Shown: piece after piece, positions 7,491 to 19,059 of the stretch
Layout of the letters: the number at the start of each line of letters is the position of its first letter
Position numbering within the stretch: position 1 is the stretch's first letter
NCBI GenBank assembly: GCA_963820805.1
Contig: CAWGBH010000004.1
Span: 3,367 to 67,366 of the forward strand
Source: an uncultured Alphaproteobacteria bacterium
Lineage (GTDB): Bacteria > Pseudomonadota > Alphaproteobacteria > Rhizobiales > Xanthobacteraceae
Length of the DNA: 64,000 nt
Direction: 5' to 3'
Position numbers and translations under genes: made by a program
The notes under the pieces: model-generated
The model's input: the letters and a program-made list of their open reading frames with translations, nothing else
The model's database searches: none
What the model was told of the DNA's origin: nothing

Positions 7491-7561
7491 GTCCGCTTTT
7501 TCCCCAACAACGGACATGTGCAGTGCACTAGAAGATGTCTGCTAAGTGCCAATAGCGGACT
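7491..7561 (+). repeat. Composite REP/BIME-like element (C-spacer-B)
   Basis: gtccgcttttTCCCCaacaacggacat + gtgcagtgca + atgtctgctaaGTGCCAatagcggac. Confidence 0.8.
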
Positions 7562-7600
7562 CACCCACTTCAGCACTCACGAAGGGGCGTGCTCACGAAC

Positions 7601-8377
7601 TCACTGCATCGACCAACCGTGGCTCACGATCAGCGATTGCCCAGTGAGCGCGTTGGTCTTGAAACCCGCGAAAAATACAGCGGCCTCGGCCACGTCTTCT
7701 ACGGTCGTGAACTCACCATCGACCGTGTCCTTCAGCATGATGCCTTTAATGACTTGCTCTTCGGTGATCCCAAGCGCCTTTGCCTGCTGGGGAATTTGCT
7801 TGTCAACGAGCGGCGTGCGCACGAATCCCGGGCAGATCACGTTTGCGCGCACACCGAACTTGGCGCCTTCCTTTGCAACGACCTTAGCGAGCCCGATAAG
7901 GCCGTGTTTGGCCGTCACGTAGGGTGCCTTCAGCAACGAGGCTTCCTTCGAGTGCACTGAGCCCATGTAAATAATGCTACCACCGGTCCCCTGCTGGCAC
8001 ATCTGCTTCAGCGCCGCCCGCGTGGTGAGGAAGGCGCCGTCCAGGTGAATCGCTAGCATCTGCTTCCATTTTGCAAAGTCAAAGTCCTCCAGTGGTGCCA
8101 CGATCTGGATGCCTGCATTGCTTACGAGCACGTCGATACAACCGAAGCATGACACGGCTTTAGCCATGCCGGCCTCGACTTGTGCTTCGCTCGTCACGTC
8201 CATCGCGATGCCGATCGCAGCATCCCTGCCAAATTCGGCGGCCGCCGCGTCAGCATCGGCCTGATTGAGATCGGCGATCACGACCTTGGCTCCCTCGCGC
8301 CGGTAGGCACGTGCGATCTCCTTGCCGATGCCGCTGGCGCTGCCTGTAACGACTGCAATTTTGCCTAGGAGACGCAT
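7601..8377 (-). CDS. bdhA: 3-hydroxybutyrate dehydrogenase (classical SDR)
   Basis: [22 protein letters not shown]... with YVTAK (YxxxK), 258 aa. GGAGAA lies upstream of ATG comp. 8375-8377. Confidence 0.9.
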
Positions 8378-9148
8378 GCGAGTCTTCTTTCTCCGGCCCG
8401 CGAGGCAGTCGGCTGTAGGTAATCGTGCACGACTTTGCCGAGGCCAAGAGTCTAGATCGGCGACGAAGTGAACGGCAGAGACGACTTCGAGCACCGGCAG
8501 CTCGGCGACAGGCGCCAGCGCGTGCGGATTAAGCTGCAGCGAGCCCGGCCCCTCCCAGGCGCCACGCACCTTGATGCCCTCGAGCCGGTACTCGACGAGT
8601 TCGCAGATGCGCGCGGCGCCATCGACGTGCGGAATGACCTTGATCAGGAAATTCGGCGCACCTAGGACTCCTGCGATCTGCGAAGCATCGAGCGTGCGGT
8701 GCTTGTAACCCATCGTGCCGGTGACCACGCGTACTGGGCCATAGTCAAGCGTGCCGACGAGTGTGTCCTTTTCAACTTTGAGACTCGGGCTCGCAAGCTT
8801 CTTGGGGAAGCCCCAGAGCTCACGCCCGCCCGCGATCGCCGACTCGTCGTCGAGGAACATGCAGTGCGTGTAGTTCCCACGCCGACCGTTGAGTGATACC
8901 GGAATCACCTGGCCGCTCTCAGTGTAGTCGCCGAAGCCCGTGGAGTTTGGCATACGGATGAATTCGTATTTCACTAGAGGTGCGTCGAGCGCCAGTGGTT
9001 GAGGCACGATCCCGCGCAGCCGCTTCGGGTCAGTGCGATAGGTAATGATTAGGTATTCGCGATCGGTGAATCGGTAAGGTCCCGGCGGATAGGCAGGGCT
9101 CGTTAGTGGCATTGCAAATGCGCGCTTCCGGATCTCTTCTTCAGTCAT
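8365..9148 (-). pseudogene. adc: Acetoacetate decarboxylase, frame disrupted near 8451-8453; as written it reads through in frame into bdhA
   Basis: [41 protein letters not shown]... matches the ADC family. The conserved C-terminus (T/A)[11 protein letters not shown] is present only in the +1 frame after ...HFVADL. Confidence 0.8.
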
Positions 9149-9161
9149 AGTATCCTCCGTT

Positions 9162-10352
9162 TTATTCGCGGCCGTCGATGTGTAGGTCGAAAGTGAAGAC
9201 GCCGTCTGGTGTCTTGGGTCGCCTGAGCACCTCCGGATGACGCAAAGTACGCACGGCATCGTGGTAGCCGGCGCGCCAATGCTCCTCCATGCTACGGCGG
9301 GAGAATTCGTAATCTTTCGAGTCGCCCTCATAAGTTTTTGCGCGGTAGATGAGCTGGATAATGTTGTAAGCCTTATGCTCGATCATTGGTTGCAGCACCT
9401 CCATCTCCGGGCTATTGCGCACATGCTCGGGCATGTCGGCGCTCAGCTTAGTCGCTGCATGGCGCATTCGTTGCATTCGCTTAAAGCTGCTCGTGCTGGC
9501 GCGGGTTCGGCTTGAATACATGATCTCCTTTCGGCGCGTCTCGACTTCCGCTAAGTGCCGCGGGAAATCGCCGCGTGCGCTCCACAGATCCACTTGAAAG
9601 GCAAGCGTGTCCTGCCGCGGCACGTTTTCGACAACCCATTCCAGCGGAGTGTTGGAGACGAGGCCACCATCCCAATAATGCTCGCCCTCAATCTCAACGG
9701 GAGGAAAACCGGGCGGCAGCGCGCCGCTGGCCATGACGTGCTCGGGACCGATCCGGTGCGTCTCTGTGTCGAAACAGACCAGATTGCCCGAACGCACATT
9801 GACGGCGCCGACCGTGAAGCGCACCGAGCCCGCATTAATTCGGTCGAAATCGGTGAGGCTTTCGAGAGTGGATCGCAGATTTGTCGTGTCGTAGTAGCTC
9901 GTCGCCCCGGTGCTACCACTCGGAACGAACCATGGCGTCATTGGCCGCGGGGTGAAGAATCCAGGCGCGCCCCAAACTAAAGTCATTGCAGCGTTCGCCT
10001 GGTTCATCCAGCCGCGCAGAGTGTCATTGCCTTTCGACATCGGTGCCAACAAAGCGTCGAGGCCGTGCGGGGCGACCGTGATTAGCTCCCAGAATTTCCG
10101 TAGTTGCTCGACGCGCCGCTCGGGCGCATTGCCCGCGATCAATGCGCCGTTAATCGCGCCGATAGAAATGCCGGTCACCCAATCGGGTTGCAGATCGGCC
10201 TCGACGAGCGCCTCATATACGCCGGCCTGATATGAGCCGAGTGCGCCACCACCTTGCAGCAGCAGGGCAACGCAGTCGAAAGGGGGCCGAGCCGGCGCGC
10301 GGCGTCGCTTTGCGGCCATAGCTGTGATGGCAGAAGAGCGAAGCTGTTCCAT
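9162..10352 (-). CDS. Patatin-like phospholipase
   Basis: Oxyanion motif LQGGGALG, GxSxG as GISIGA, and the catalytic DGG motif (YWDGGLVSN). Confidence 0.85.
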
Positions 10353-10398
10353 AATGATTTTTTCCTTTGTTGACTACGTGGGCGGCAGCGCATGCGCG

Positions 10399-13300
10399 TC
10401 AGCTGTGAGCTAGCGCAGGAACTCCGGTTGAAATAGTCGGCTGCCATTCCGAAATCGGCTTGATCCGGAACCATGCAACGTACAGCGCTGGCAGAAATAC
10501 GAGGGTAAGCAGCGTCGCGACCACGAGCCCGCCCATCACCGCATAGGCCATCGGTCCCCAGAACACAGTGGGCGCGATCGGTATCATGCCCAGAATCGCG
10601 GCGGCAGCGGTCAGCAGGATTGGTCGCAGCCTATGCTGCGTGGCTAAGATTACCGCGTTCCATGGGTGCTGGCCCGCGGTGATTTCGGTATCAATCTGGT
10701 CAATGAGGATCACCGAGTTGCGGATCACCATTCCGATCAACGAGACGACCCCGAGTATCGCAACGAATTCCATAGGTGAGCCCGAGACGAGCAGCGCGGC
10801 GGCGACACCGATGAGAGCCAGCGGCGCGGTGGCGAGCACAAGGAACAGCCGCTGAAAGCTCTGCAACTGCGCCATGAGAATCGTGACCATGATCAGGATC
10901 ATGATCGGGAAGACTGCGAATATGCTGGCCTCCGCTTTGGCACTTTCCTCGACAGTGCCACCTGCGACCACGTCATAACCTGTCGGCAGTTTCGACTTGA
11001 AAGCGGCGAGATCGGAGGAGAGCGCTTTTACAACGGTTGCCGCCTCCAGGTTCGGCGCGGTATCGGCTTGCACCGTGATGGTTGGCAGACGATGGCGGCG
11101 CCAGACGAGCGGCGGTTCGACCCCGTAAGAGAGCTTAGCGACTTGCTCAAGCGGCACCGATCGTCCACCAGGTACGCTGATCATTAAGCTGCGCAGAGTC
11201 TCCAGCTTGGCGCGCTCGTCGGGAATGGCGCGGGCGACAATGTCGATCAAATAGATATCGTCGCGCACCTGGGTGACGGTCGTGCCGGATAAGATGGCAT
11301 TTATGGTCTGACTCAATGCTTGCGAACTGATACCGAGCGCCCGAGCCCGGTCCTGATCCACCTGGACACGGATAACTTTGGACGGCTCGTTCCAATCGAA
11401 GTTAATGTTTCGGGCATTTGGAGTCTTGCGAAGCAGTGAGGCGAAGTTCTGCGCGATCTCACGGACCTTCACGGGATCCGGGCCGCTGACGCGGAATTTG
11501 AGCGGCCACCCGACCGGCGGCCCAAGCTCCAAAGGGCTGACGCGCGGTTGTACCTGTTCGAACTCGGACTGTTGCAAAGCGGCGAGGATCCGCTGTTGCA
11601 CGGCCGGGCGAATCTTGGATCCTTTCGTGACTATGACGCCTTGCGCGAAGAAGTCGTTCGCGAGCTGCTGATCAAGCGGCAGGTAGAAGCGGATAGCGCC
11701 ACTGCCGATGTAAAAGGACCAGCGTTCGATGTCCGGGTCAGTCTTAAGGACTTTCTCGAGGTCATCGACGACCTTGCGTGTTGCATTGATCGTGGAGCCT
11801 TGCGGGAGCGTCAGGTCAACGAGAAGTTCTGGACGGTCGGAGCTCGGGAAGAACTGCTGCTGCACGAACTGCATGCCGCCGAGAGCTGCGACGAACAGCA
11901 AAACGGTGGCGCCGATCACCCAGTGTCTCAGATGCAGCACGCGATCGAGCATGGTGTTGAACGCGCGCGCGAAGCGCGACGGCTCATGGCCATGCCCCTT
12001 TATCTTGTCGGGCAGGATGAAAACGCCTGTCAGGGGAGTGAACAGCACGGCCACGAACCACGATGCGGTCAACGCAATGCCCACGACCGCGAATAGCGTG
12101 AAACAGTACTCGCCGGCGCTACTAGCAGCGAACCCCACCGGGACAAATCCTGCGATGGTGACGAGCGTGCCGGTCAGCATCGGGAAGGCTGTAGATTTAT
12201 AGGCAAATGTTGCGGCCGTAACCTTGTCGCAGCCCTCTTCGAGCTTCTTGATCATCATCTCCACCGCAATCATCGCGTCGTCGACCAGAAGCCCAAGCCC
12301 GATAATGAGTGCGCCGAGCGAGATACGCTGCAGGCTCACTCCGGCAATTTTCATGGCGACGAAGGTGATCGCAAGGACCAGCGGAATCGCAATCGCGACG
12401 ACGACGCCAGGCCGCCAGCCCAGCGCAAGAAAGCTCACAGCCAATACGATAGCGATGGCCTCAATCAAGGTTTTGATGAACTCGCCTACGGCGTCTTCAA
12501 CGACTTCCGGCTGGTTGGCCACCAGATGCGATTCGATGCCCGCCGGTAGATCGGCCGTCACCTTGGCAAGGCGCTCTTTGAGGTGCTCACCGAAGGCCAA
12601 GACGTCGCCGTTCTTTCGCATCGAGACGGCGATGCCAATGGCTGAGCGGCCGTTGTATCGAAACATTGGCTGCTGTGGGTCAGCGTACCCTCGTTGCACT
12701 TTCGCGATGTCGCTCAGCCGAAAGAACCGGCCATTGAAACGGAAATTGATGGCTTGCAGGCTCTCTTCTGACGTGAACTGACCCGAGACGCGAATCGCGA
12801 TCTTTTCTGCATCTGAATCCACCGTCCCGCTCGGCTGAATCGCATTTTGCGCCTGTAGGGTCTGTATCAGCTCGGAAATGTTGAGCCCCATGGCGGCGAG
12901 CTGCTGGGTCGAGAACTCCAGATAAATTTTCTCGTCCTGGGTCCCGAGCAGGTCGATCTTGGCAACGTCGGCAACGCCGAGCAGCTCGGCTCGCACGCGC
13001 TCGGCATAGTCGCGCAGCTCCCGATGGGAGAAACCATCCGAAGTCAGCGCGAAGATGAGGGCATATGTGTCGCCGAACTCGTCGTTGAAGAAGGGACCCT
13101 GCACGCCTTGGGGCAAGGTCTGCTTGATGTCGCCGACCTTTTTTCGGACCTGGTACCAGAGATCGGGCACGTCCGAGGCGCGGGTGGAGTCCTTCAGATT
13201 GACGAACACCACGGACTCGCCGGGCTTGGTGTAACTTTTTTGATAGTCGATGTTCGGCAGCTCTTCGAGCTTCTTCTCGATGCGGTCCGTGACTTGCTGC

Positions 13301-13488
13301 ATCGTTTCCAGCGTGGTGGCGCCAGGCCAAAGCGTCTTCACCACCATGGTCTTGATGGTGAAGGGCGGATCCTCGTCACGGCCGAGCCGGCTATATTCGA
13401 AAATTCCGGCGAGCGCGACGACCAGCATCAGGTAGACGACAAAGCTCTTATGCTCCAGCGCCCAGCGGGAGAGATTGAACGTCTTCAT
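10399..13488 (-). CDS. RND efflux transporter permease (AcrB/HAE1-type, 1029 aa)
   Basis: Length, 12-TM architecture and the typical N-terminus MKTFNLSRWALEHKSFVVYLMLVVALAG...PPFTIKTMVV. Confidence 0.95.
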   Translation of the reverse strand: MKTFNLSRWALEHKSFVVYLMLVVALAGIFEYSRLGRDEDPPFTIKTMVVKTLWPGATTLETMQQVTDRIEKKLEELPNIDYQKSYTKPGESVVFVNLKDSTRASDVPDLWYQVRKKVGDIKQTLPQGVQGPFFNDEFGDTYALIFALTSDGFSHRELRDYAERVRAELLGVADVAKIDLLGTQDEKIYLEFSTQQLAAMGLNISELIQTLQAQNAIQPSGTVDSDAEKIAIRVSGQFTSEESLQAINFRFNGRFFRLSDIAKVQRGYADPQQPMFRYNGRSAIGIAVSMRKNGDVLAFGEHLKERLAKVTADLPAGIESHLVANQPEVVEDAVGEFIKTLIEAIAIVLAVSFLALGWRPGVVVAIAIPLVLAITFVAMKIAGVSLQRISLGALIIGLGLLVDDAMIAVEMMIKKLEEGCDKVTAATFAYKSTAFPMLTGTLVTIAGFVPVGFAASSAGEYCFTLFAVVGIALTASWFVAVLFTPLTGVFILPDKIKGHGHEPSRFARAFNTMLDRVLHLRHWVIGATVLLFVAALGGMQFVQQQFFPSSDRPELLVDLTLPQGSTINATRKVVDDLEKVLKTDPDIERWSFYIGSGAIRFYLPLDQQLANDFFAQGVIVTKGSKIRPAVQQRILAALQQSEFEQVQPRVSPLELGPPVGWPLKFRVSGPDPVKVREIAQNFASLLRKTPNARNINFDWNEPSKVIRVQVDQDRARALGISSQALSQTINAILSGTTVTQVRDDIYLIDIVARAIPDERAKLETLRSLMISVPGGRSVPLEQVAKLSYGVEPPLVWRRHRLPTITVQADTAPNLEAATVVKALSSDLAAFKSKLPTGYDVVAGGTVEESAKAEASIFAVFPIMILIMVTILMAQLQSFQRLFLVLATAPLALIGVAAALLVSGSPMEFVAILGVVSLIGMVIRNSVILIDQIDTEITAGQHPWNAVILATQHRLRPILLTAAAAILGMIPIAPTVFWGPMAYAVMGGLVVATLLTLVFLPALYVAWFRIKPISEWQPTISTGVPALAHS

Positions 13489-14571
13489 TTGCTGTCACTC
13501 CTGGCCAAGTTTGCGTCGGCAAGCCGCACCTTTTGCCCGACCGTCAGCTTATTCACCCCTGCTGTAACGACGATGTCTCCTTGGGCCAGGCCGGCGGCGA
13601 CGATTGCAGTATTTGCCTCATAGCGCGCAACCGTGACGGTCCTCAGACTGAGACTGCTCGATTGCTGATCGAGCACCCAGACTGCCGGTGAACCATTCTT
13701 TTCAAAAAGCGCGGAGAGTGGCAGCGCGACAGCGAGAGCGGCATTTCCCTTCAGACTGGCGCTGACACTCATGCCGAAGCGGAGCTGCGGCGGCGAGTTA
13801 TTCAACGTGACTTTGACCGTGTAGGTACGCGTCACCGGGTCGGCGACAGGAGACATTTCCCGCACCACTCCCTCGACGGTCAGATCTGGGTTTGACAGCG
13901 GCCAAACGATGACCTTGGGATGAAGTCTTGCTGATATCGGTGAGGGCCGTCTCGGCGATGTTGAAGACGCCGTCCTTGTCGTCTGGTCGCGCCAGCTTCA
14001 ACACCATCTGTCCGGCGTTTACATTCTGGCCTGCTTCGGCACCGACGGCAGTAATCACGCCGTCGAAATCGGCCCTGAGCATGGTGTAATTGAGCTGATC
14101 GCGGGTGAGGTTGAGATTGGCCTTGGCAGCTTTGAGCCGCGCTTCCGCAGCTTGCATGTTCTGAAGGGCGGTGTCGTAAGTTGCCTTCGGCGTCCAGCCA
14201 TCCTTCAAAAGCTTGGCTTGGCGCTCCTCCGTCCCCTGCGCATTGACGAGCGCTGCCTCGGCGGAACTAACGTCCGCTTCCGCTGAGCGGAGGTGATTTT
14301 GATAGTCTTGGGTGTCAAGCGTGGCCAGCGTGTCGCCTTGCTTGACCGAAGCTCCGACATCAACAAGCCGGGAAAGCACCTTGCCGGCGACACGGAATGA
14401 CAGATCGCTCTCGTAACGCGGCTTGACTTCGCCGATGGCGTGGCGGTCTTCGGCGATAGATTTGGGATCGACGACGAGTGCGCGGACCAGCTGGAGTGTC
14501 GCCGGCGCGTCTTCTGGCTTGCAGCCGGCAAGCACCAGAAACGCGAGAATAAGGAGAAAGCAGGACCGCAT
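13485..14571 (-). pseudogene. RND periplasmic adaptor (MFP), split by a net +1 frame disruption near 13.92 kb
   Basis: ORFs 13798..14571 (lipoprotein signal LAGC plus coiled-coil hairpin) and 13485..13868 (VREMSPVADPVTRTYTVKV...) are the two halves of one adaptor. PKVIVWPLSNPDLTVEG continues in the +1 frame. Confidence 0.85.
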
Positions 14572-14595
14572 GTTCGTGCTCCAACGGAGTATCTA

Positions 14596-14714
14596 ATGTT
14601 GACGCTGACAACTTCATAAGCTTGGCAAGTTGTCATTGTCAACATTTGGACCGGTTTTCGCGGGGATGGCTGATATGCATAAATGTTGACATCGCCAACT
14701 TCGTCGGCTAAATG
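14596..14714. promoter_or_regulatory. Divergent promoter/operator region: three copies of a 19-bp motif ATGTTGAC-N5-CAACTT plus the tetR promoter
   Basis: Motifs at 14596-14614, 14627-14645 (inverted) and 14683-14701. TTGACA (14686-14691)-N17-TAAATG faces tetR. On the other strand TTGACA-N17-TTATGA faces the pump operon. Confidence 0.6.
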
Positions 14715-14741
14715 TCCCGGAAATGGATGGTTTGACGAGCG

Positions 14742-15425
14742 ATGCCTAAGCACCAACCCCCAGAGCGCCCTTACCACCACGGCGACCTGCGCCGTTCAAT
14801 CGTCAAAGCGGCCCTTGAAATCCTGGGTGAAACGCAAAGTTTTGACTTTTCGCTGCGCGAACTGGCCCGGCGAGCGGGCGTCAGTCACAACGCCCCTTAC
14901 AAGCACTTTGCCGACAAGCGTGAACTATTCGCGGCGGTCTCGGCGGCAGGGTTCGAGATGCTAACGAAGCGCATGGCCCGCGAAATTGCGGGCATCGGCG
15001 ATGCTCGTAAACAGTTGTTCGCGATGCTGCGCGCCTACATTGATCAGGGAGTTGAAAACCCGGCGCTTTATAGCCTGATGTTCGGAGGCTACCTCAGCGG
15101 CCCGGATCGTGGCCGGCCTACCATCGAATTGGCGGAAGCCGAGAAGACCAAGACCATGCTTGCCGACGTTATCATTGCCGGGGGCCTCGGACGCGCCATC
15201 CCGCATATCGCCCGCAACGAACGAAAAATCGCCGGTGCGATTCTGGCGTGCTGGTCCCTCGTGCATGGACTCACGCTGCTGCTGGCGGATGGCCTCGTCG
15301 GCCCGAAGAAAAAATCTGGCGCGCTAGCTGACAGCCTAGTGCAGGGGCTCCTCGACGGACTAGCGGGTGAATTGCCGATGTTACCGCCTGGCACCTGGGT
15401 TGGCCCTCGAGTGCCTACTTCGTAG
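14742..15425 (+). CDS. TetR/AcrR-family transcriptional repressor
   Basis: N-terminal HTH FSLRELARRAGVSHNAPYKHFADKRELF. Divergent from the RND operon. Confidence 0.9.
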   Translation: MPKHQPPERPYHHGDLRRSIVKAALEILGETQSFDFSLRELARRAGVSHNAPYKHFADKRELFAAVSAAGFEMLTKRMAREIAGIGDARKQLFAMLRAYIDQGVENPALYSLMFGGYLSGPDRGRPTIELAEAEKTKTMLADVIIAGGLGRAIPHIARNERKIAGAILACWSLVHGLTLLLADGLVGPKKKSGALADSLVQGLLDGLAGELPMLPPGTWVGPRVPTS

Positions 15426-15509
15426 TCCGCGGTCGCCTTCACTTGCGGCGACCGGGTGTTCGGATCATAGGCCAATGACGGACATGCGCACTGTCGGACA
15501 TTCGCCACT

Positions 15510-16304
15510 TTATTCGACTTGGTGGCCCTGCGCCGGATGAATAGCTGTGAATGCAACTGCGCGGGGACTATTTAGCACAAACAAAGGACGATAGTTACGA
15601 GCGTCCTCAGCGGTGACGATCGCCATTGTCAGATTATCGAGGATGAGCCACTGCTGCTCGTAGAGAACCGCCACGACCGCATGCTCCGTCCGCCGTTTGT
15701 CGTCTTCTACAATGACAAGCCGGAGATCGTCGGCCTGGATGCCCAATGCGCGAAGCGCGGCATATTTCACGATGGCATAGTCCTCGCAATCGCCGCTCCC
15801 ACTGCTGAGCGTTTGAAGCGGAGACGCCCAGTAATCGGCATCACCGTATTGGGCCCAATCGCTAGCGGGCTTGACACTCATGTTGACCGCACGATTGAGC
15901 CATCCCAGCCGGGTGCGCCCCTCATGTTGTCGGCCAAGTTCAACGATCGACAAAAAGCGGCGTTCAGCCTGCGAGCATGTGCTTTCACCAGAGCGGCACG
16001 CCGCGAGCGCCCTCTCGTCAGCGGAAATGCGGGATTCAAGCTCGTTCCACTTCGCCGACATCTCTTCAGTCGGAACGCTCGTTGGATTAAATGCTCGGGG
16101 CGGCAAATTAGCGAAATTAAGTGAAGCGAGCTGTAACGGAGCAAGATCGCCCAGCCTATAGCTCAGAGCCAGGAGGCTACGTGGCGCGCTAATCTGATGC
16201 GTATTGGCGAAGGCAGCGCTGTAGCAACACGCGAAAAAGCAGACATATGCCATCCGGATTAAAGCGAACATGATTGACCACTTCACACGGCGTCGACGAA
16301 GCAA
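15510..16304 (-). CDS. Bacterial transglutaminase-like cysteine proteinase (BTLCP, LapG-like, Peptidase C93)
   Basis: Signal sequence plus Cys-His-Asp triad contexts SGSGDCEDYAIVKYAAL, TEHAVVAVLY and WLILDNL. Confidence 0.8.
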   Translation of the reverse strand: MLRRRRVKWSIMFALIRMAYVCFFACCYSAAFANTHQISAPRSLLALSYRLGDLAPLQLASLNFANLPPRAFNPTSVPTEEMSAKWNELESRISADERALAACRSGESTCSQAERRFLSIVELGRQHEGRTRLGWLNRAVNMSVKPASDWAQYGDADYWASPLQTLSSGSGDCEDYAIVKYAALRALGIQADDLRLVIVEDDKRRTEHAVVAVLYEQQWLILDNLTMAIVTAEDARNYRPLFVLNSPRAVAFTAIHPAQGHQVE

Positions 16305-16328
16305 AATCGGTGAGCCAGGATGAACATG

Positions 16329-16658
16329 TTAGCCTCCTTCAGTGCGATGAGTATTGGGCGGCCAATTGTTGGTGCGCTCGTCGTGCTGCGGTAGCTTCTG
16401 CGACGATGCTTGATCCACCGGCACATGGGGCGCGATGACCGAGTGGCAAGCGGCCGATATCACGTCTTTATTGGCGACAAGACAGCTGAATACCCGGTCA
16501 CGGTTTGGAATTGCACCCGAGCAAAATTGGAACGCATCACCAATACAGGCTTGCTTCTCTTCCAAAGTTTCAGCACTCGCGCTGACAGTGGTGCTCAATA
16601 TCCAGACGGCGCGGAGTAAGATGACGAGCGTGCGCGCAATCTTCGTTCTGGCAGCCAT
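16329..16658 (-). CDS. Small secreted cysteine-rich-repeat protein
   Basis: Signal peptide, then ACIGDAFQFCSGAIPNRDRVFSCLVANKDVISAACHSVI (C-x3-D..C..G..CL..LS..C pattern). GGAGA lies 7 nt before ATG comp. 16656-16658. Sits 24 nt upstream of the BTLCP gene. Confidence 0.55.
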   Translation of the reverse strand: MAARTKIARTLVILLRAVWILSTTVSASAETLEEKQACIGDAFQFCSGAIPNRDRVFSCLVANKDVISAACHSVIAPHVPVDQASSQKLPQHDERTNNWPPNTHRTEGG

Positions 16659-16720
16659 AATCGTATCTCCTGACATCTAGGCCGGACGCCGTGCCCGCAA
16701 CGTGCCGCAGCGAAGGCTGA

Positions 16721-16825
16721 GTGTTGACGTTGACAACTTCAATAGCGCCTAAGTTGGCGATGTCAACATTGTCGCTGGATTGTTGCGAGAATGGCTGATA
16801 TGCATAATGTTGACATCGCCAACAT
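16721..16825. promoter_or_regulatory. Second copy of the TetR-type operator/promoter module
   Basis: Motifs at 16721-16739, 16751-16769 (inverted) and 16807-16825. The 16-nt block ATGGCTGATATGCATA matches region A (14666-14681 vs 16791-16806), and motif spacing matches (31/56 vs 30/56 nt). Confidence 0.6.
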
Positions 16826-16871
16826 CGTTTGGCTAAACATGAATGACTTCAGTGCTTTGCTGGCCCTTCCG

Positions 16872-16944
16872 GGTTCGCTTTGGGTCATTAGCGGACATTG
16901 CGCTCGTCATATCTGATGTCTGCTTTACCCCCAAAAGCGGACAT
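16872..16944 (+). repeat. Composite REP/BIME-like element (A-spacer-C)
   Basis: ggttcgctttGGGTCAttagcggacat ... atgtctgctttACCCCCaaaagcggacat. Confidence 0.8.
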
Positions 16945-16988
16945 TGATCGCTGGATTTCAGTTTTGAGCGGAGAATGTTGCAACGCGT

Positions 16989-17423
16989 CTAATGAATCGT
17001 TGGCCTTGAAGGCTCCGACCCGCCCGTACCCACCGCCCGCGGATTGATCAGGTCGATCAACTCGTCTCTTTCAGTCTCGGCCGCTTTCATCGTTGCTATG
17101 GTTTGCTGGTAGGTAGTCGAATTTGAACCAAGAATGACGACGCCTCCAATAGTGGCTGCAATTGCGCCGGCCATGAGCGTGGGATCAAATCTGAGTGCTC
17201 CGAGGAAATAACCCAAAAGCCAAATGCCTCCGGCAGCGATGGTCACCTTCGAAAGCAGCATGGCCTTACGACAGCCATCTAATGTTTTGGAAAATTGGTC
17301 GATGTCGACTTCGATACGCGAGATTTGATCGCGCAGATCACCATCAACCTCCCTAGGCGTCATGATGCTCAGCGTCTTAGCGCTTGCCCCGCTGACAATG
17401 AAGTTCCAAATGGAACGAGCCAA
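16989..17423 (-). CDS. Hypothetical membrane protein
   Basis: Open frame with two predicted TM helices (VTIAAGGIWLLGYFLGAL, LMAGAIAATIGGVVILG). TTG start is uncertain; an alternative is MTPREV at about comp. 17363. Confidence 0.45.
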   Translation of the reverse strand: MARSIWNFIVSGASAKTLSIMTPREVDGDLRDQISRIEVDIDQFSKTLDGCRKAMLLSKVTIAAGGIWLLGYFLGALRFDPTLMAGAIAATIGGVVILGSNSTTYQQTIATMKAAETERDELIDLINPRAVGTGGSEPSRPTIH

Positions 17424-17545
17424 GATGTAACACTATGATGCCTTTTATGAAAGCTACGTCCGCTTCGTTGCCCTGGTGAGCGATGCCACGCTGGGCGGCG
17501 GACGTTTCGCGGGGCAAAAAGTCACATAAGTGGTGCAGCCCACCA

Positions 17546-17618
17546 ATGTCCGCTTTGGGTCATTAGCGGACATGTGCGATGCAAAAGGTCATGTCCGCAT
17601 TGCCCCCAATAACGGACT
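17546..17618 (+). repeat. Composite REP/BIME-like element (A-spacer-C)
   Basis: atgtccgctttGGGTCAttagcggacat + gtgcgatgca + atgtccgcattGCCCCCaataacggac. Confidence 0.8.
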
Positions 17619-17690
17619 TTCGCTAATCGACCACAGAAGCAGAAAGACCGCCTCGCGGCGGTCTCTCCGAAATCCAATCAGGTGTTTAGA

Positions 17691-18311
17691 TCAAGCTGTT
17701 GCTTGAGCCTTCCGCTTCCTACGCCGTGCAAGCAGGCCCAATGCGCCGAGGCCGGTGGCGAACAGTGGAAGTGCCGCCGGCAGAGGGGTCTGGGAGAGAT
17801 CACCGCCTTCCAGGGCGATACCGGTACCGACGCTTGTTTTGACCCATACATCAAACACGTCCGCGAGTGCGCCGCTGATCAAGAAAGCAAAAGTGCCACC
17901 GCCGTTATCCCATGCGGCAAACAATGCATCTTGCCCCCGCAACGGATTGTTCGAAATTGCGAAGATCAGCCCATTGCCGTCGATCGGGGCGGTCGTATCG
18001 CCACCAAAAATATCCGTACCGTGATTGTCGCGAAATCCTGTTTGACCACCGTAATTTCCATTACCACCGTCGGTCGCCAGAGTAATCAAGGTGAGATCGA
18101 AGATATTGGCACCGAAAGCAATCGTACCTGTTCCGCTAAGCGCCTGGCCTCCAACCACGTCCAGCGATACAGTGGCGGTAAATGCAGGGGGACCAAAATC
18201 GCCGCTGAAATTGTAAATCGAGTTTGCATTGGCAGCGGGGACCTCAAACGCTACGCCAACAATTACGGCAGCCGCAATCGCTAGCCTCTTCGTAAGCCCA
18301 TTAACCTGCAT
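17691..18311 (-). CDS. Secreted protein with a VPLPA-CTERM / PEP-CTERM-type C-terminal sorting signal
   Basis: Signal peptide MQVNGLTKRLAIAAAVIVGVAFEVPAANA and C-terminus TPLPAALPLFATGLGALGLLARRRKRK. The ORF upstream of Met84 only translates REP sequence. Confidence 0.6.
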   Translation of the reverse strand: MQVNGLTKRLAIAAAVIVGVAFEVPAANANSIYNFSGDFGPPAFTATVSLDVVGGQALSGTGTIAFGANIFDLTLITLATDGGNGNYGGQTGFRDNHGTDIFGGDTTAPIDGNGLIFAISNNPLRGQDALFAAWDNGGGTFAFLISGALADVFDVWVKTSVGTGIALEGGDLSQTPLPAALPLFATGLGALGLLARRRKRKAQATA

Positions 18312-18451
18312 AGTCGCTCCAATCGACAAACGCCTGAAATGCCACATTAACTGCTTAGGACGAGTGGACCGGCTCGGTCTTGTGATTTCCCGCCAACGTT
18401 TTGGCAATTGTTCCACGGCGAATGCCTCGCCAGACGCTGGAAACGCGACCG

Positions 18452-18569
18452 ATGTCCGCTTTGAGTCAAAAGCAGACATGTGCAGTGCAAAACGGCGTGT
18501 CCGCTTTAGCCCCGAAAGCGGACATGTGCAGTGCGCTAGGCGATGTCCGCTAAGTGCCAATTGCGGACC
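18452..18569 (+). repeat. Composite REP/BIME-like element (A-spacer-C-spacer-B)
   Basis: Three hairpins, with the spacer GTGCAGTGCA present twice. Confidence 0.85.
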
Positions 18570-18706
18570 TTGGGAAGTCTGCCGCTAGGCAATGACTTTG
18601 CGCCTAATTAATTCAAATTAGACTCAACTTGCCGGACGAACACGAAAACCCCCTTAAGAACGGCGGTGGTATCTGGCTGACACATTGACCCAGAGGAGTC
18701 CTCCAG

Positions 18707-18868
18707 ATGTCCAAAGTTTTCGCATTTCTGAAAAACGAGTCAGGGGCCACCGCCATCGAATACGGCCTGATCGCTGCCGGCATTTCGGTCGTGATCATCG
18801 CCACTGTAAATGCGATCGGAACCAACCTGAATGCGAAGTTCGATTCCATCTCGACCCAACTCAAGTAA
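18707..18868 (+). CDS. flp: Flp/Fap-family type IVb pilin (53 aa, not in the ORF track)
   Basis: MSKVFAFLKNESG|ATAIEYGLIAAGISVVIIATVNAIGTNLNAKFDSISTQLK has the canonical Flp motif G/ATAIEYGLIAA. GAGGAG lies about 9 nt upstream and a terminator follows. Confidence 0.8.
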   Translation: MSKVFAFLKNESGATAIEYGLIAAGISVVIIATVNAIGTNLNAKFDSISTQLK

Positions 18869-18901
18869 TCGACGCAGGTAACACGCATCTCCGCACTTGA
18901 A

Positions 18902-18930
18902 GCCGTCGGTTGCCGACGGTTTCTTTTTTT
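18902..18930 (+). terminator. Rho-independent terminator after flp
   Basis: CCGTCGG-ttg-CCGACGG followed by TTTCTTTTTTT. Confidence 0.6.
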
Positions 18931-18986
18931 GGTCGCGGTGCGGATCGGGTATCGGTCAAAAACAGACGCGACGCTGTTTAATTGCG

Positions 18987-19059
18987 ATCTCCGCTGCTAC
19001 CCCAAGGCGGACATAGGACGGCACGTCCTGAATGTCCGTTAAGTGCCAAAAGCGGGCAT
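18987..19059 (+). repeat. Composite REP/BIME-like element (C-spacer-B)
   Basis: atctccgctgctACCCCaaggcggacat ... atgtccgttaaGTGCCAaaagcgggcat. Confidence 0.75.

Follow-up and report, generated by a model that had tools for sequence, protein, structure and literature searches.

Gene content and repeated motifs of the locus

We analysed a 64-kb stretch of DNA from an uncultured member of the Xanthobacteraceae (Alphaproteobacteria; assembly GCA_963820805.1, contig CAWGBH010000004.1, positions 3,367 to 67,366), referred to here in its full length as the window. Within it, a gene for a TetR-family regulator stands between a divergent operon for a resistance-nodulation-division (RND) efflux pump and a convergent two-gene operon that encodes a small cysteine-rich (Cys-rich) secreted protein and a member of the BTLCP family of cysteine proteases. 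A preliminary description of the locus had proposed that a TetR-type operator/promoter module occurs twice, once in front of each operon, so that the pump and the protease would share one repressor. The genes of the cluster, identified by Pfam and NCBIfam searches, are listed below (ORF, open reading frame).

7601–9331, − strand: acetoacetate decarboxylase (ADC) and 3-hydroxybutyrate dehydrogenase (BDH) in one 576-aa ORF; extra base near 8453; two genes in relative L100
9162–10352, − strand: patatin-like hydrolase (Patatin and DUF3734 domains), downstream in the pump operon; syntenic in many loci
10399–13488, − strand: RND permease, ACR_tran, 1029 aa (PF00873, 559.7 bits, residues 7–1004)
13485–14571, − strand: membrane-fusion protein (MFP) gene of the pump, with MFP domains; interrupted near 13927 by one extra base, which divides it into two ORFs
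14742–15425, + strand: tetR, TetR_N and TetR_C_33 regulator; the sole TetR paralogue in the window
15510–16271, − strand: BTLCP-family cysteine protease/transglutaminase homologue (Peptidase_C93) with predicted signal peptide MFALIRMAYVCFFACCYSAAFA; mechanical ORF to 16304
16329–16658, − strand: small secreted protein, 109 aa, with four invariant cysteines, first gene of the two-gene operon; mechanical ORF to 16676

A motif search of the whole window with ATGTTGAC-N5-CAACTT recovered six copies, three in each of two intergenic regions as previously reported, with no mismatch at 14596, 14627, 14683 and 16751 and one mismatch at 16721 and 16807. Allowing up to two mismatches gave seven matches, every one within the six sites, and the window thus holds no further copy; shuffled sequences gave a chance expectation of 0.21 and at most two matches among 100 shuffles. 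The two regions, termed modules A and B, contain the following elements.

14594–14714: module A, putative divergent promoter/operator region of the pump operon (leftward) and tetR (rightward); aligns with the tetR-upstream regions of 28 Xanthobacteraceae loci
14596–14614, + strand: candidate operator A1, ATGTTGACGCTGACAACTT; overlaps −10-like TATGAA (− strand, 14618–14613) and the likely start of the pump transcript
14627–14645, − strand: candidate operator A2, ATGTTGACAATGACAACTT (on the − strand); holds the putative pump promoter −35 TTGACA (14642–14637, − strand)
14667–14682: conserved block ATGGCTGATATGCATA, copy A, at a fixed distance 5′ of operator 3
14683–14701, + strand: candidate operator A3, ATGTTGACATCGCCAACTT; holds the putative tetR promoter −35 TTGACA (14686–14691), with −10-like CTAAAT at 14708–14713
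16719–16839: module B, putative promoter/operator region of the Cys-rich/BTLCP operon, direct repeat of A
16721–16739, + strand: candidate operator B1, GTGTTGACGTTGACAACTT; lies over −10-like TATTGA/ATTGAA (− strand, 16744–16738) of the leftward promoter; core invariant in 7/7 sequences
16751–16769, − strand: candidate operator B2, ATGTTGACATCGCCAACTT (on the − strand); −35 TTGACA (16766–16761, − strand) facing the Cys-rich gene
16792–16807: conserved block ATGGCTGATATGCATA, copy B
16807–16825, + strand: candidate operator B3, ATGTTGACATCGCCAACAT; rightward TTGACA and −10-like CTAAAC, followed by no gene and running into a repeat resembling repetitive extragenic palindromic (REP) elements

A repeat finder and pairwise alignment identified the modules as direct repeats of about 120 bp, 2,125 bp apart and identical at 98/125 positions (78%). 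Their divergence is uneven: the operators are preferentially kept, and the right half, comprising the block, motif 3 and the −10-like GCTAAA, is identical at 43/49 positions as compared with 55/76 for the left half. Several finer claims of the preliminary description were reproduced on measurement, namely the near-identical motif spacing (31/56 nt in A and 30/56 nt in B), the 16-nt block with the same letters in both modules, and the inverted match between motifs 2 and 3 of module B, which form an 18-nt repeat of 100% complementarity. Operators B2 and A3 are identical in sequence. The claim that the motifs overlap outward-facing TTGACA boxes holds for motif 2 (on the − strand) and motif 3 (on the + strand), but not for motif 1, which lies over the presumed leftward −10/+1 region.

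By this arrangement, each leftward promoter would consist of a TTGACA inside operator 2, a gap of 16–18 nt, and TATGAA (A) or TATTGA (B) overlapping operator 1, while each rightward promoter would consist of a TTGACA inside operator 3, a gap of 16–17 nt, and CTAAAT (A) or CTAAAC (B). Operator A1 lies 25 nt from the MFP start codon (ATG at 14571), and operator 1 is invariant among all aligned putative leftward promoters.

The motif accompanies tetR across orthologous loci

Relatives of the TetR protein were sought in one genome per GTDB species, which yielded 80 loci with 59–89% identity, mostly from Xanthobacteraceae/Pseudolabrys-like metagenome-assembled genomes and for the remainder from Rhizobium or Ensifer isolates. 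Nearly all of them, Rhizobium and Ensifer included, carry three sites just 5′ of tetR in the order +/−/+, and at least two sites with no more than one mismatch occur within 220 nt upstream of the tetR start in 63 of the 78 usable loci. Across 883 kb of related loci, 168 sites were found near tetR and 19 elsewhere, most of the latter in second modules. When 28 upstream regions were aligned with both modules, conservation was seen in the operators, the TTGACA boxes, the TA of each −10 and the block, and variation in the spacers, in sequence as well as in length.

A frequency matrix built from 123 distinct sites further indicated that two positions within the supposedly unconstrained N5 are conserved, with G at position 12 in 99% of sites and a purine at position 9. 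On this evidence the full site is a 15-bp dyad, GTTGNCR-N-YGNCAAC, whose geometry is that of a TetR dimer site and whose flanks, (A)ATG...CTT, are conserved. The comparative case that TetR proteins of this subfamily use the motif as their operator is strong, with binding predicted from conservation and symmetry.

The partner encoded divergently from tetR varies among the loci. It is MFP-RND(-patatin-ADC-BDH) in most Xanthobacteraceae, MFP-MFP-RND in Ensifer, patatin-ADC-BDH in Rhizobium leguminosarum and relatives, and a DUF2092 periplasmic protein in L069. A second module precedes a further gene in about ten loci (L022, L032, L035, L043, L045, L047, L049, L067, L069 and L072), and the genes behind these modules encode small ORFs without a Pfam match (including those between the paired modules of L045, L047 and L049), another TetR, or DUF2092/Pro-rich secreted proteins. 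Reuse of the module is therefore habitual in this TetR subfamily, and the second module in the window is unsurprising in kind.

Module B is retained upstream of Cys-rich/BTLCP genes in other genomes

None of the 80 TetR loci carries a BTLCP gene directly 3′ of tetR, and the search was therefore made from the BTLCP/Cys-rich side, using a comparison set of BTLCP relatives in metagenome contigs and Cys-rich homologues with their encoding contigs. Two loci (L100 and L101; 94% identity over the cluster) have the gene order of the window and three operators in both modules. In four others (L082, L084, L109 and L111), the pump-patatin-ADC-BDH operon is followed on its own strand by the Cys-rich/BTLCP pair, and the block, motif 2 and motif 1 come, in this order, right behind the BDH stop codon and ahead of the Cys-rich start codon. 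In L102, neither tetR nor a pump lies within 10 kb of the pair, but motif 2, motif 1 and a degenerate form of the block persist behind what is left of the 3′ end of BDH (SDR); L087 retains motif 1 alone.

Motif 3 has been lost in L082, L084, L102, L109 and L111, all of which keep the gene pair together with motifs 2 and 1. In an alignment of seven upstream sequences, the operator 1 core is invariant (7/7) and operator 2 is kept in 6/7, with leaders that range from 14 to about 80 nt, and the Cys-rich orthologues behind the retained block and motifs 2 and 1 share 69–86% amino-acid identity. The sites, with their dyad symmetry, thus keep their placement relative to tetR and before the Cys-rich/BTLCP genes across several gene orders. 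Because the block and motifs 2 and 1 are kept across these gene orders while spacers and leaders have diverged, module B is best described as a long-standing promoter/operator region; its reading as a fresh duplication, as the preliminary description might suggest, does not agree with this conservation or with the 78% identity between A and B.

The block itself (ATGGCTG.(T/C)ATGC) precedes operator 3 by a constant distance in about 28 Xanthobacteraceae loci and is also retained 5′ of the Cys-rich genes in L082, L084, L109 and L111, where operator 3 is lost. In Rhizobium the block is absent and the spacing between motifs 2 and 3 is just 32 nt. The spacer adjoining the block falls into two length classes separated by a 12-nt indel, which suggests helical phasing. 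Three candidate identities for the block were rejected: a sigma-54 site (the GG-to-GC spacing is 9, not 12), a −10 box (the −10-like TATCAG is not kept in relatives) and a mini-ORF (the frame differs between A and B).

A proposed two-target repressor

On this comparative basis, we consider it likely that the TetR protein (14742–15425) acts as the local repressor of a two-region regulon, co-repressing the pump operon and the Cys-rich/BTLCP operon, as the preliminary description had proposed. The proposal gains support from the sites found in 63/78 tetR loci, from the dyad symmetry, and from retention of the module before Cys-rich/BTLCP genes. The regulon would also include the patatin-like hydrolase, the acetoacetate decarboxylase and the 3-hydroxybutyrate dehydrogenase.

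In the proposed mechanism, the two control regions would be of one design, each with three 15-bp dyads, of which operator 2 would cover the leftward −35 TTGACA, operator 1 its −10/+1 region, and operator 3 the rightward −35 TTGACA. The leftward promoter of module A would drive MFP-RND-patatin-acetoacetate decarboxylase-3-hydroxybutyrate dehydrogenase and its rightward promoter tetR, resulting in autoregulation, while the leftward promoter of module B would drive the genes for the Cys-rich secreted protein and the periplasmic BTLCP. TetR dimers on the operators would occlude RNA polymerase: at operators 1 and 2 they would shut off transcription of the pump operon from module A and of the Cys-rich/BTLCP operon from module B, and at operator 3 of module A that of tetR. 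A small-molecule ligand, probably a pump substrate or inducer, would then free TetR from its sites and turn on both operons and tetR together. That this TetR rather than another protein binds the sites, that binding represses, and which exact promoter elements are used, we infer from the sequences.

Several observations weigh against this proposal. A strict E. coli-type sigma-70 scan of 14500–17100 returned no consensus promoter, and a terminator scan was likewise empty; the former result is explained by −10 boxes that are weak by E. coli standards (TATGAA/TATTGA and CTAAAT/CTAAAC), and the promoter assignments therefore rest on the TTGACA boxes, these weak −10 boxes and conservation. For the rightward promoter of module B, no target gene is evident from the sequence or from synteny with the 80 TetR loci and L100/L101. 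Some Cys-rich/BTLCP loci are without the motif (L081, and L103 and L110, which have another operator), and membership in this regulon is therefore lineage-specific. The frameshift in the MFP gene may mean that the pump is inactive in this genome, or that the assembly carries indel errors. Finally, the scan for further operator copies covered 64 kb of the genome, and a literature search found no binding or expression data for this TetR subfamily.

Alternative explanations

Two alternatives would deny the second module a function in regulation. Module B could be a scar without function, left when tetR or the BTLCP operon was moved by a recent segmental duplication or rearrangement, as might be expected from direct repeats 2.1 kb apart with right halves identical at 43/49 positions, from a rightward promoter that faces no gene, and from collinearity with the nearest relatives that stops exactly at the edge of module B. 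Such a scar would not be expected to keep its block and motifs 2 and 1 before Cys-rich orthologues of 69–86% amino-acid identity in three gene orders while spacers and leaders diverged, nor to show 78% overall identity to module A with the operators preferentially conserved. The cross-genome footprint largely refutes this explanation, and we regard it as highly improbable. The motif could instead be a dispersed mobile or REP-like repeat that is intergenic by chance, an alternative also raised in the preliminary description, in which many more copies across the genome, unrelated to promoters, were taken as the sign of such a repeat. The window does hold an abundant intergenic repeat family, ...AAAGCGGACAT (21 copies), which flanks the cluster, but this family differs in sequence from the operator motif. 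The latter occurs six times in 64 kb, coincides with −35 boxes whose distances to start codons are conserved, and in the 883 kb of related loci lies immediately 5′ of tetR in fixed order and orientation for 168/187 sites, and a mobile origin is accordingly the least probable of the explanations considered.

The remaining alternatives accept real operators and differ in how they are read. A different regulator (another TetR paralogue or a global factor) could bind them, or the two modules could answer to separate proteins, with no strict co-regulation. This is made conceivable by the extra conserved block (ATGGCTGATATGCA), which is present in both modules and has no assigned factor, by L102, which keeps the module with no tetR within 10 kb, by the use of another TetR for the same genes in other lineages, and by the status of binding by this TetR as a prediction. 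Opposing it, the motif co-occurs with this tetR group in two alphaproteobacterial families despite differing partners (pump, patatin or DUF2092 protein), the operators of A and B share a consensus and B2 equals A3, and the 15-bp dyad suits a TetR dimer in a window with no other TetR. We therefore judge a different or divided regulator unlikely, although less so than either a scar or a mobile repeat. Module B could also mainly serve its right side, with B3 and TTGACA/CTAAAC driving a small RNA, a 26-codon ORF (ATG at 16839) or a transcript antisense to the ORF at 16989–17423. The right half of B is the best conserved relative to A (43/49) and B3 is kept in L100/L101, but no Rfam family was found there apart from a chance miRNA match (E 0.1), the sequence to the right of 16823 is unlike that of L100/L101 and runs into a REP-like element, and motif 3 is lost in the five loci named above that keep motifs 2 and 1 and the gene pair. 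A mainly rightward role has a very low probability in our estimate; it is compatible with co-repression by TetR, and neither excludes the other.

Pump and BTLCP genes are associated independently of the motif

The association of RND pump and BTLCP genes extends to loci with other control elements. In L103, genes for a Cys-rich protein, a BTLCP, a small ORF, a patatin, two MFPs and an RND permease follow in this order on one strand, and in L110 a divergent gene for a 298-aa TetR_C_7 regulator precedes the Cys-rich/BTLCP pair. Both loci carry a different repeated palindrome, of the type AACGGTACCGTATCGTT, 5′ of the pair (L110, 955–1073; L103, 1–157). The regulator thus appears to have been replaced non-orthologously while co-control of the Cys-rich/BTLCP genes was kept.

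A closer connection is found in relatives with an orthologous permease. In L028, a BTLCP gene begins 73 nt after the orthologous RND gene, which is 91% identical to that of the window, and in L029 (847–4758, − strand) and L037 (861–4760, − strand) the RND ORF extends in frame by about 270 codons into a BTLCP domain. The resulting proteins of 1303 and 1299 aa combine ACR_tran and Peptidase_C93 domains, with an RND part about 91% identical to the permease of the window, and the same RND-BTLCP junction is present in a JGI protein cluster of 11 members (P0031). The permease of the window ends in ...GVPALAHS*, while the fused proteins go on through ...GVPALGYTVVVAFLVVFLTAFSGGTNAFA-ANA..., a hydrophobic segment that would put the BTLCP domain in the periplasm. 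The fused domain is a paralogue, 45% identical to the BTLCP of the window, and its close stand-alone relatives (P0032, P0033 and P0035) occur in unrelated contexts, one beside a giant Big_13 protein. The fusion is therefore rare and no family-wide rule, although it supports the association. To our knowledge, no RND-protease fusion has been described.

These observations allow the tentative suggestion, which we regard as possible rather than probable, that the Cys-rich/BTLCP pair is a dedicated periplasmic accessory of this RND pump family. The protease/transglutaminase could act on a pump component, on its Cys-rich partner, or on the envelope upon pump induction. Consistent with such a role, BTLCP genes have been recruited to the pump cluster repeatedly, in at least four gene orders, and the association has outlasted the TetR replacement and includes the fusion in a sister lineage. 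The further enzymes of the operon (patatin, acetoacetate decarboxylase and 3-hydroxybutyrate dehydrogenase) hint that a lipid-like or 3-hydroxybutyrate-ester-like compound is what the system responds to.

Gene products, cluster borders and neighbouring features

The TetR protein scores above the Pfam cut-offs for both of its domains (PF00440, 36.6 bits against 24; PF13305 TetR_C_33, 39.1 bits against 26.8), and a PDB search returned solely unnamed structural-genomics entries, with 3on2 as the nearest solved structure. The RND permease, encoded by the largest ORF of the window, falls under the NCBIfam subfamily cut-offs (470 vs 1250) and so receives no subfamily assignment. No gene for an outer-membrane factor is present in the pump operon, where patatin and ADC/BDH come after RND, and this component may be encoded elsewhere. 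The start of the ADC/BDH ORF overlaps the patatin gene, and translation probably begins near 9150 instead. Two single-base insertions set the window apart from the nearest relative, L100 (94–96% nucleotide identity), one at 13927, which splits MFP, and one at 8453, which merges ADC and BDH; these could be real mutations or long-read assembly indels.

The BTLCP product matches PF06035 (70.4 bits against a cut-off of 27), and its Cys-His-Asp triad (GDCEDYA, EHAVV, ILDNL) aligns with the LapG residues in structures 4u65/4fgo. For the Cys-rich product, no direct Pfam match was found, and its 30 close homologues are all unnamed. With a profile built from 18 relatives, 3,438 representatives were retrieved, among them many multi-repeat proteins with strong PF00839 scores, which suggests that the protein contains the 'cysteine rich repeat' once, in divergent form.

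A 9.3-kb segment from BDH to module B (7491–16823) is collinear with L100/L101, and the flanks on both sides are unrelated; on the right, homology stops at 16823, the edge of operator B3. No synteny to the right of module B or to the left of BDH was found in the 80 TetR loci or L100/L101. The cluster thus lies in differing genomic contexts among close relatives, which indicates transfer or rearrangement. The REP-like family ...AAAGCGGACAT has 21 matches in the window against 0.6 expected, with copies that include 7502–7517, 15478–15510, 16880–16944, 17546–17619 and 18510–18525; they flank the 9.3-kb cluster and also occur between tetR and the BTLCP gene.

Three further features were recorded near the cluster. 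A G+C-rich hairpin (15431–15453, GGTCGCC...GGCGACC) lies directly 3′ of the tetR stop, between the convergent tetR and BTLCP genes, and is terminator-like but without a T tract. A 26-codon ORF, MNDFSALLALPGSLWVISGHCARHI (16839–16919, + strand), lies just after the rightward promoter-like element of module B and is not conserved in L100/L101. A 289-aa ORF (17691–18560, − strand) has a borderline match to the VPLPA-CTERM sorting domain (24.6 bits against a cut-off of 25.35), and its first ~36 residues resemble the sequence directly 5′ of the BTLCP genes in L086, L089 and L097. An Rfam scan of 14000–19000 gave the chance miRNA match alone (E 0.1), and a small RNA from module B is therefore not supported.

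Discussion

TetR/tetO and the local efflux repressors AcrR-acrAB, TtgR-ttgABC, SmeT-smeDEF and QacR-qacA provide the closest models for the arrangement described here. As in these systems, a TetR_N regulator is encoded divergently from an efflux operon, and as in tetO the candidate operators are palindromic, with a 15-bp core and an odd centre, and overlap the −35/−10 boxes of both putative divergent promoters. Autoregulation and ligand-induced derepression would be expected by analogy with the local pump repressors. Unlike all of these systems, the locus has three operators per region and an extra conserved block, and a second complete control region that would serve a non-transporter operon; moreover, the regulator belongs to the TetR_C_33 group, which is uncharacterised, unlike AcrR, TtgR, SmeT and QacR.

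Pump repressors with extra targets include CmeR of Campylobacter jejuni, which controls cmeABC and the periplasmic protein gene Cj0561c, and MtrR of Neisseria. The proposed regulon resembles such cases in that a TetR-family pump repressor would also act on a periplasmic/envelope protein gene through a second operator copy. It differs in that the second target is a Cys-rich/BTLCP pair, that a whole three-operator module rather than a single site is reused, and that the association lasts across gene orders and a change of regulator.

The preliminary description had referred to the protease as LapG-like. It shares with LapG (4u65, 4fgo) the fold signature and the aligned Cys-His-Asp triad and is predicted to be periplasmic, which agrees with its BTLCP family assignment, but it reaches only 85 bits against the 320-bit LapG equivalog cut-off (NF045674). 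In the 64-kb window, no LapD-like GGDEF/EAL receptor, type I secretion system or giant adhesin of the LapA kind was found, the mid-size ORFs scanned encoding metabolic enzymes or transport proteins. The protein is therefore a BTLCP and not a LapG orthologue, and it would be under a TetR operator rather than under control by c-di-GMP sequestration. HvyA, a BTLCP of Caulobacter crescentus, blocks capsulation, and BTLCPs are often encoded near trans-envelope transport systems (PMC4241560). Like HvyA (PMC4241560), the protein of the window is an alphaproteobacterial, stand-alone BTLCP, predicted to be Sec-exported and encoded outside a Lap system. HvyA, in contrast, lies in a capsule locus and is under CtrA/MucR and cell-cycle control, whereas the present BTLCP has a Cys-rich repeat protein as its partner and is linked to an RND pump and a putative TetR regulon.

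No publication on this TetR, on its operator or on a link between TetR, RND and BTLCP proteins came up in a literature search. The regulatory mechanism proposed here is ordinary repressor logic, and the coupling, which had been called unusual, recurs in the clade and is no one-off; what stands of that claim is the unusual gene set, and the regulon content, especially the RND-BTLCP fusions, is moderately novel. The analysis supplies a candidate operator consensus and regulon for this TetR subfamily, which is uncharacterised. Its members are widespread among the Alphaproteobacteria of soils, ranging from the Xanthobacteraceae to Rhizobium and Ensifer. Two poorly understood protein types, stand-alone BTLCP proteases outside the Lap system and single-repeat bacterial 'cysteine rich repeat' proteins, also gain a functional context, both being tied here to an RND pump and a patatin/ADC/BDH set. 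If the link between pump and BTLCP is physical, as the fusions suggest, the pair would represent a new kind of pump accessory; if it is regulatory only, the locus would be a clean, ordinary case of a local repressor with two targets.

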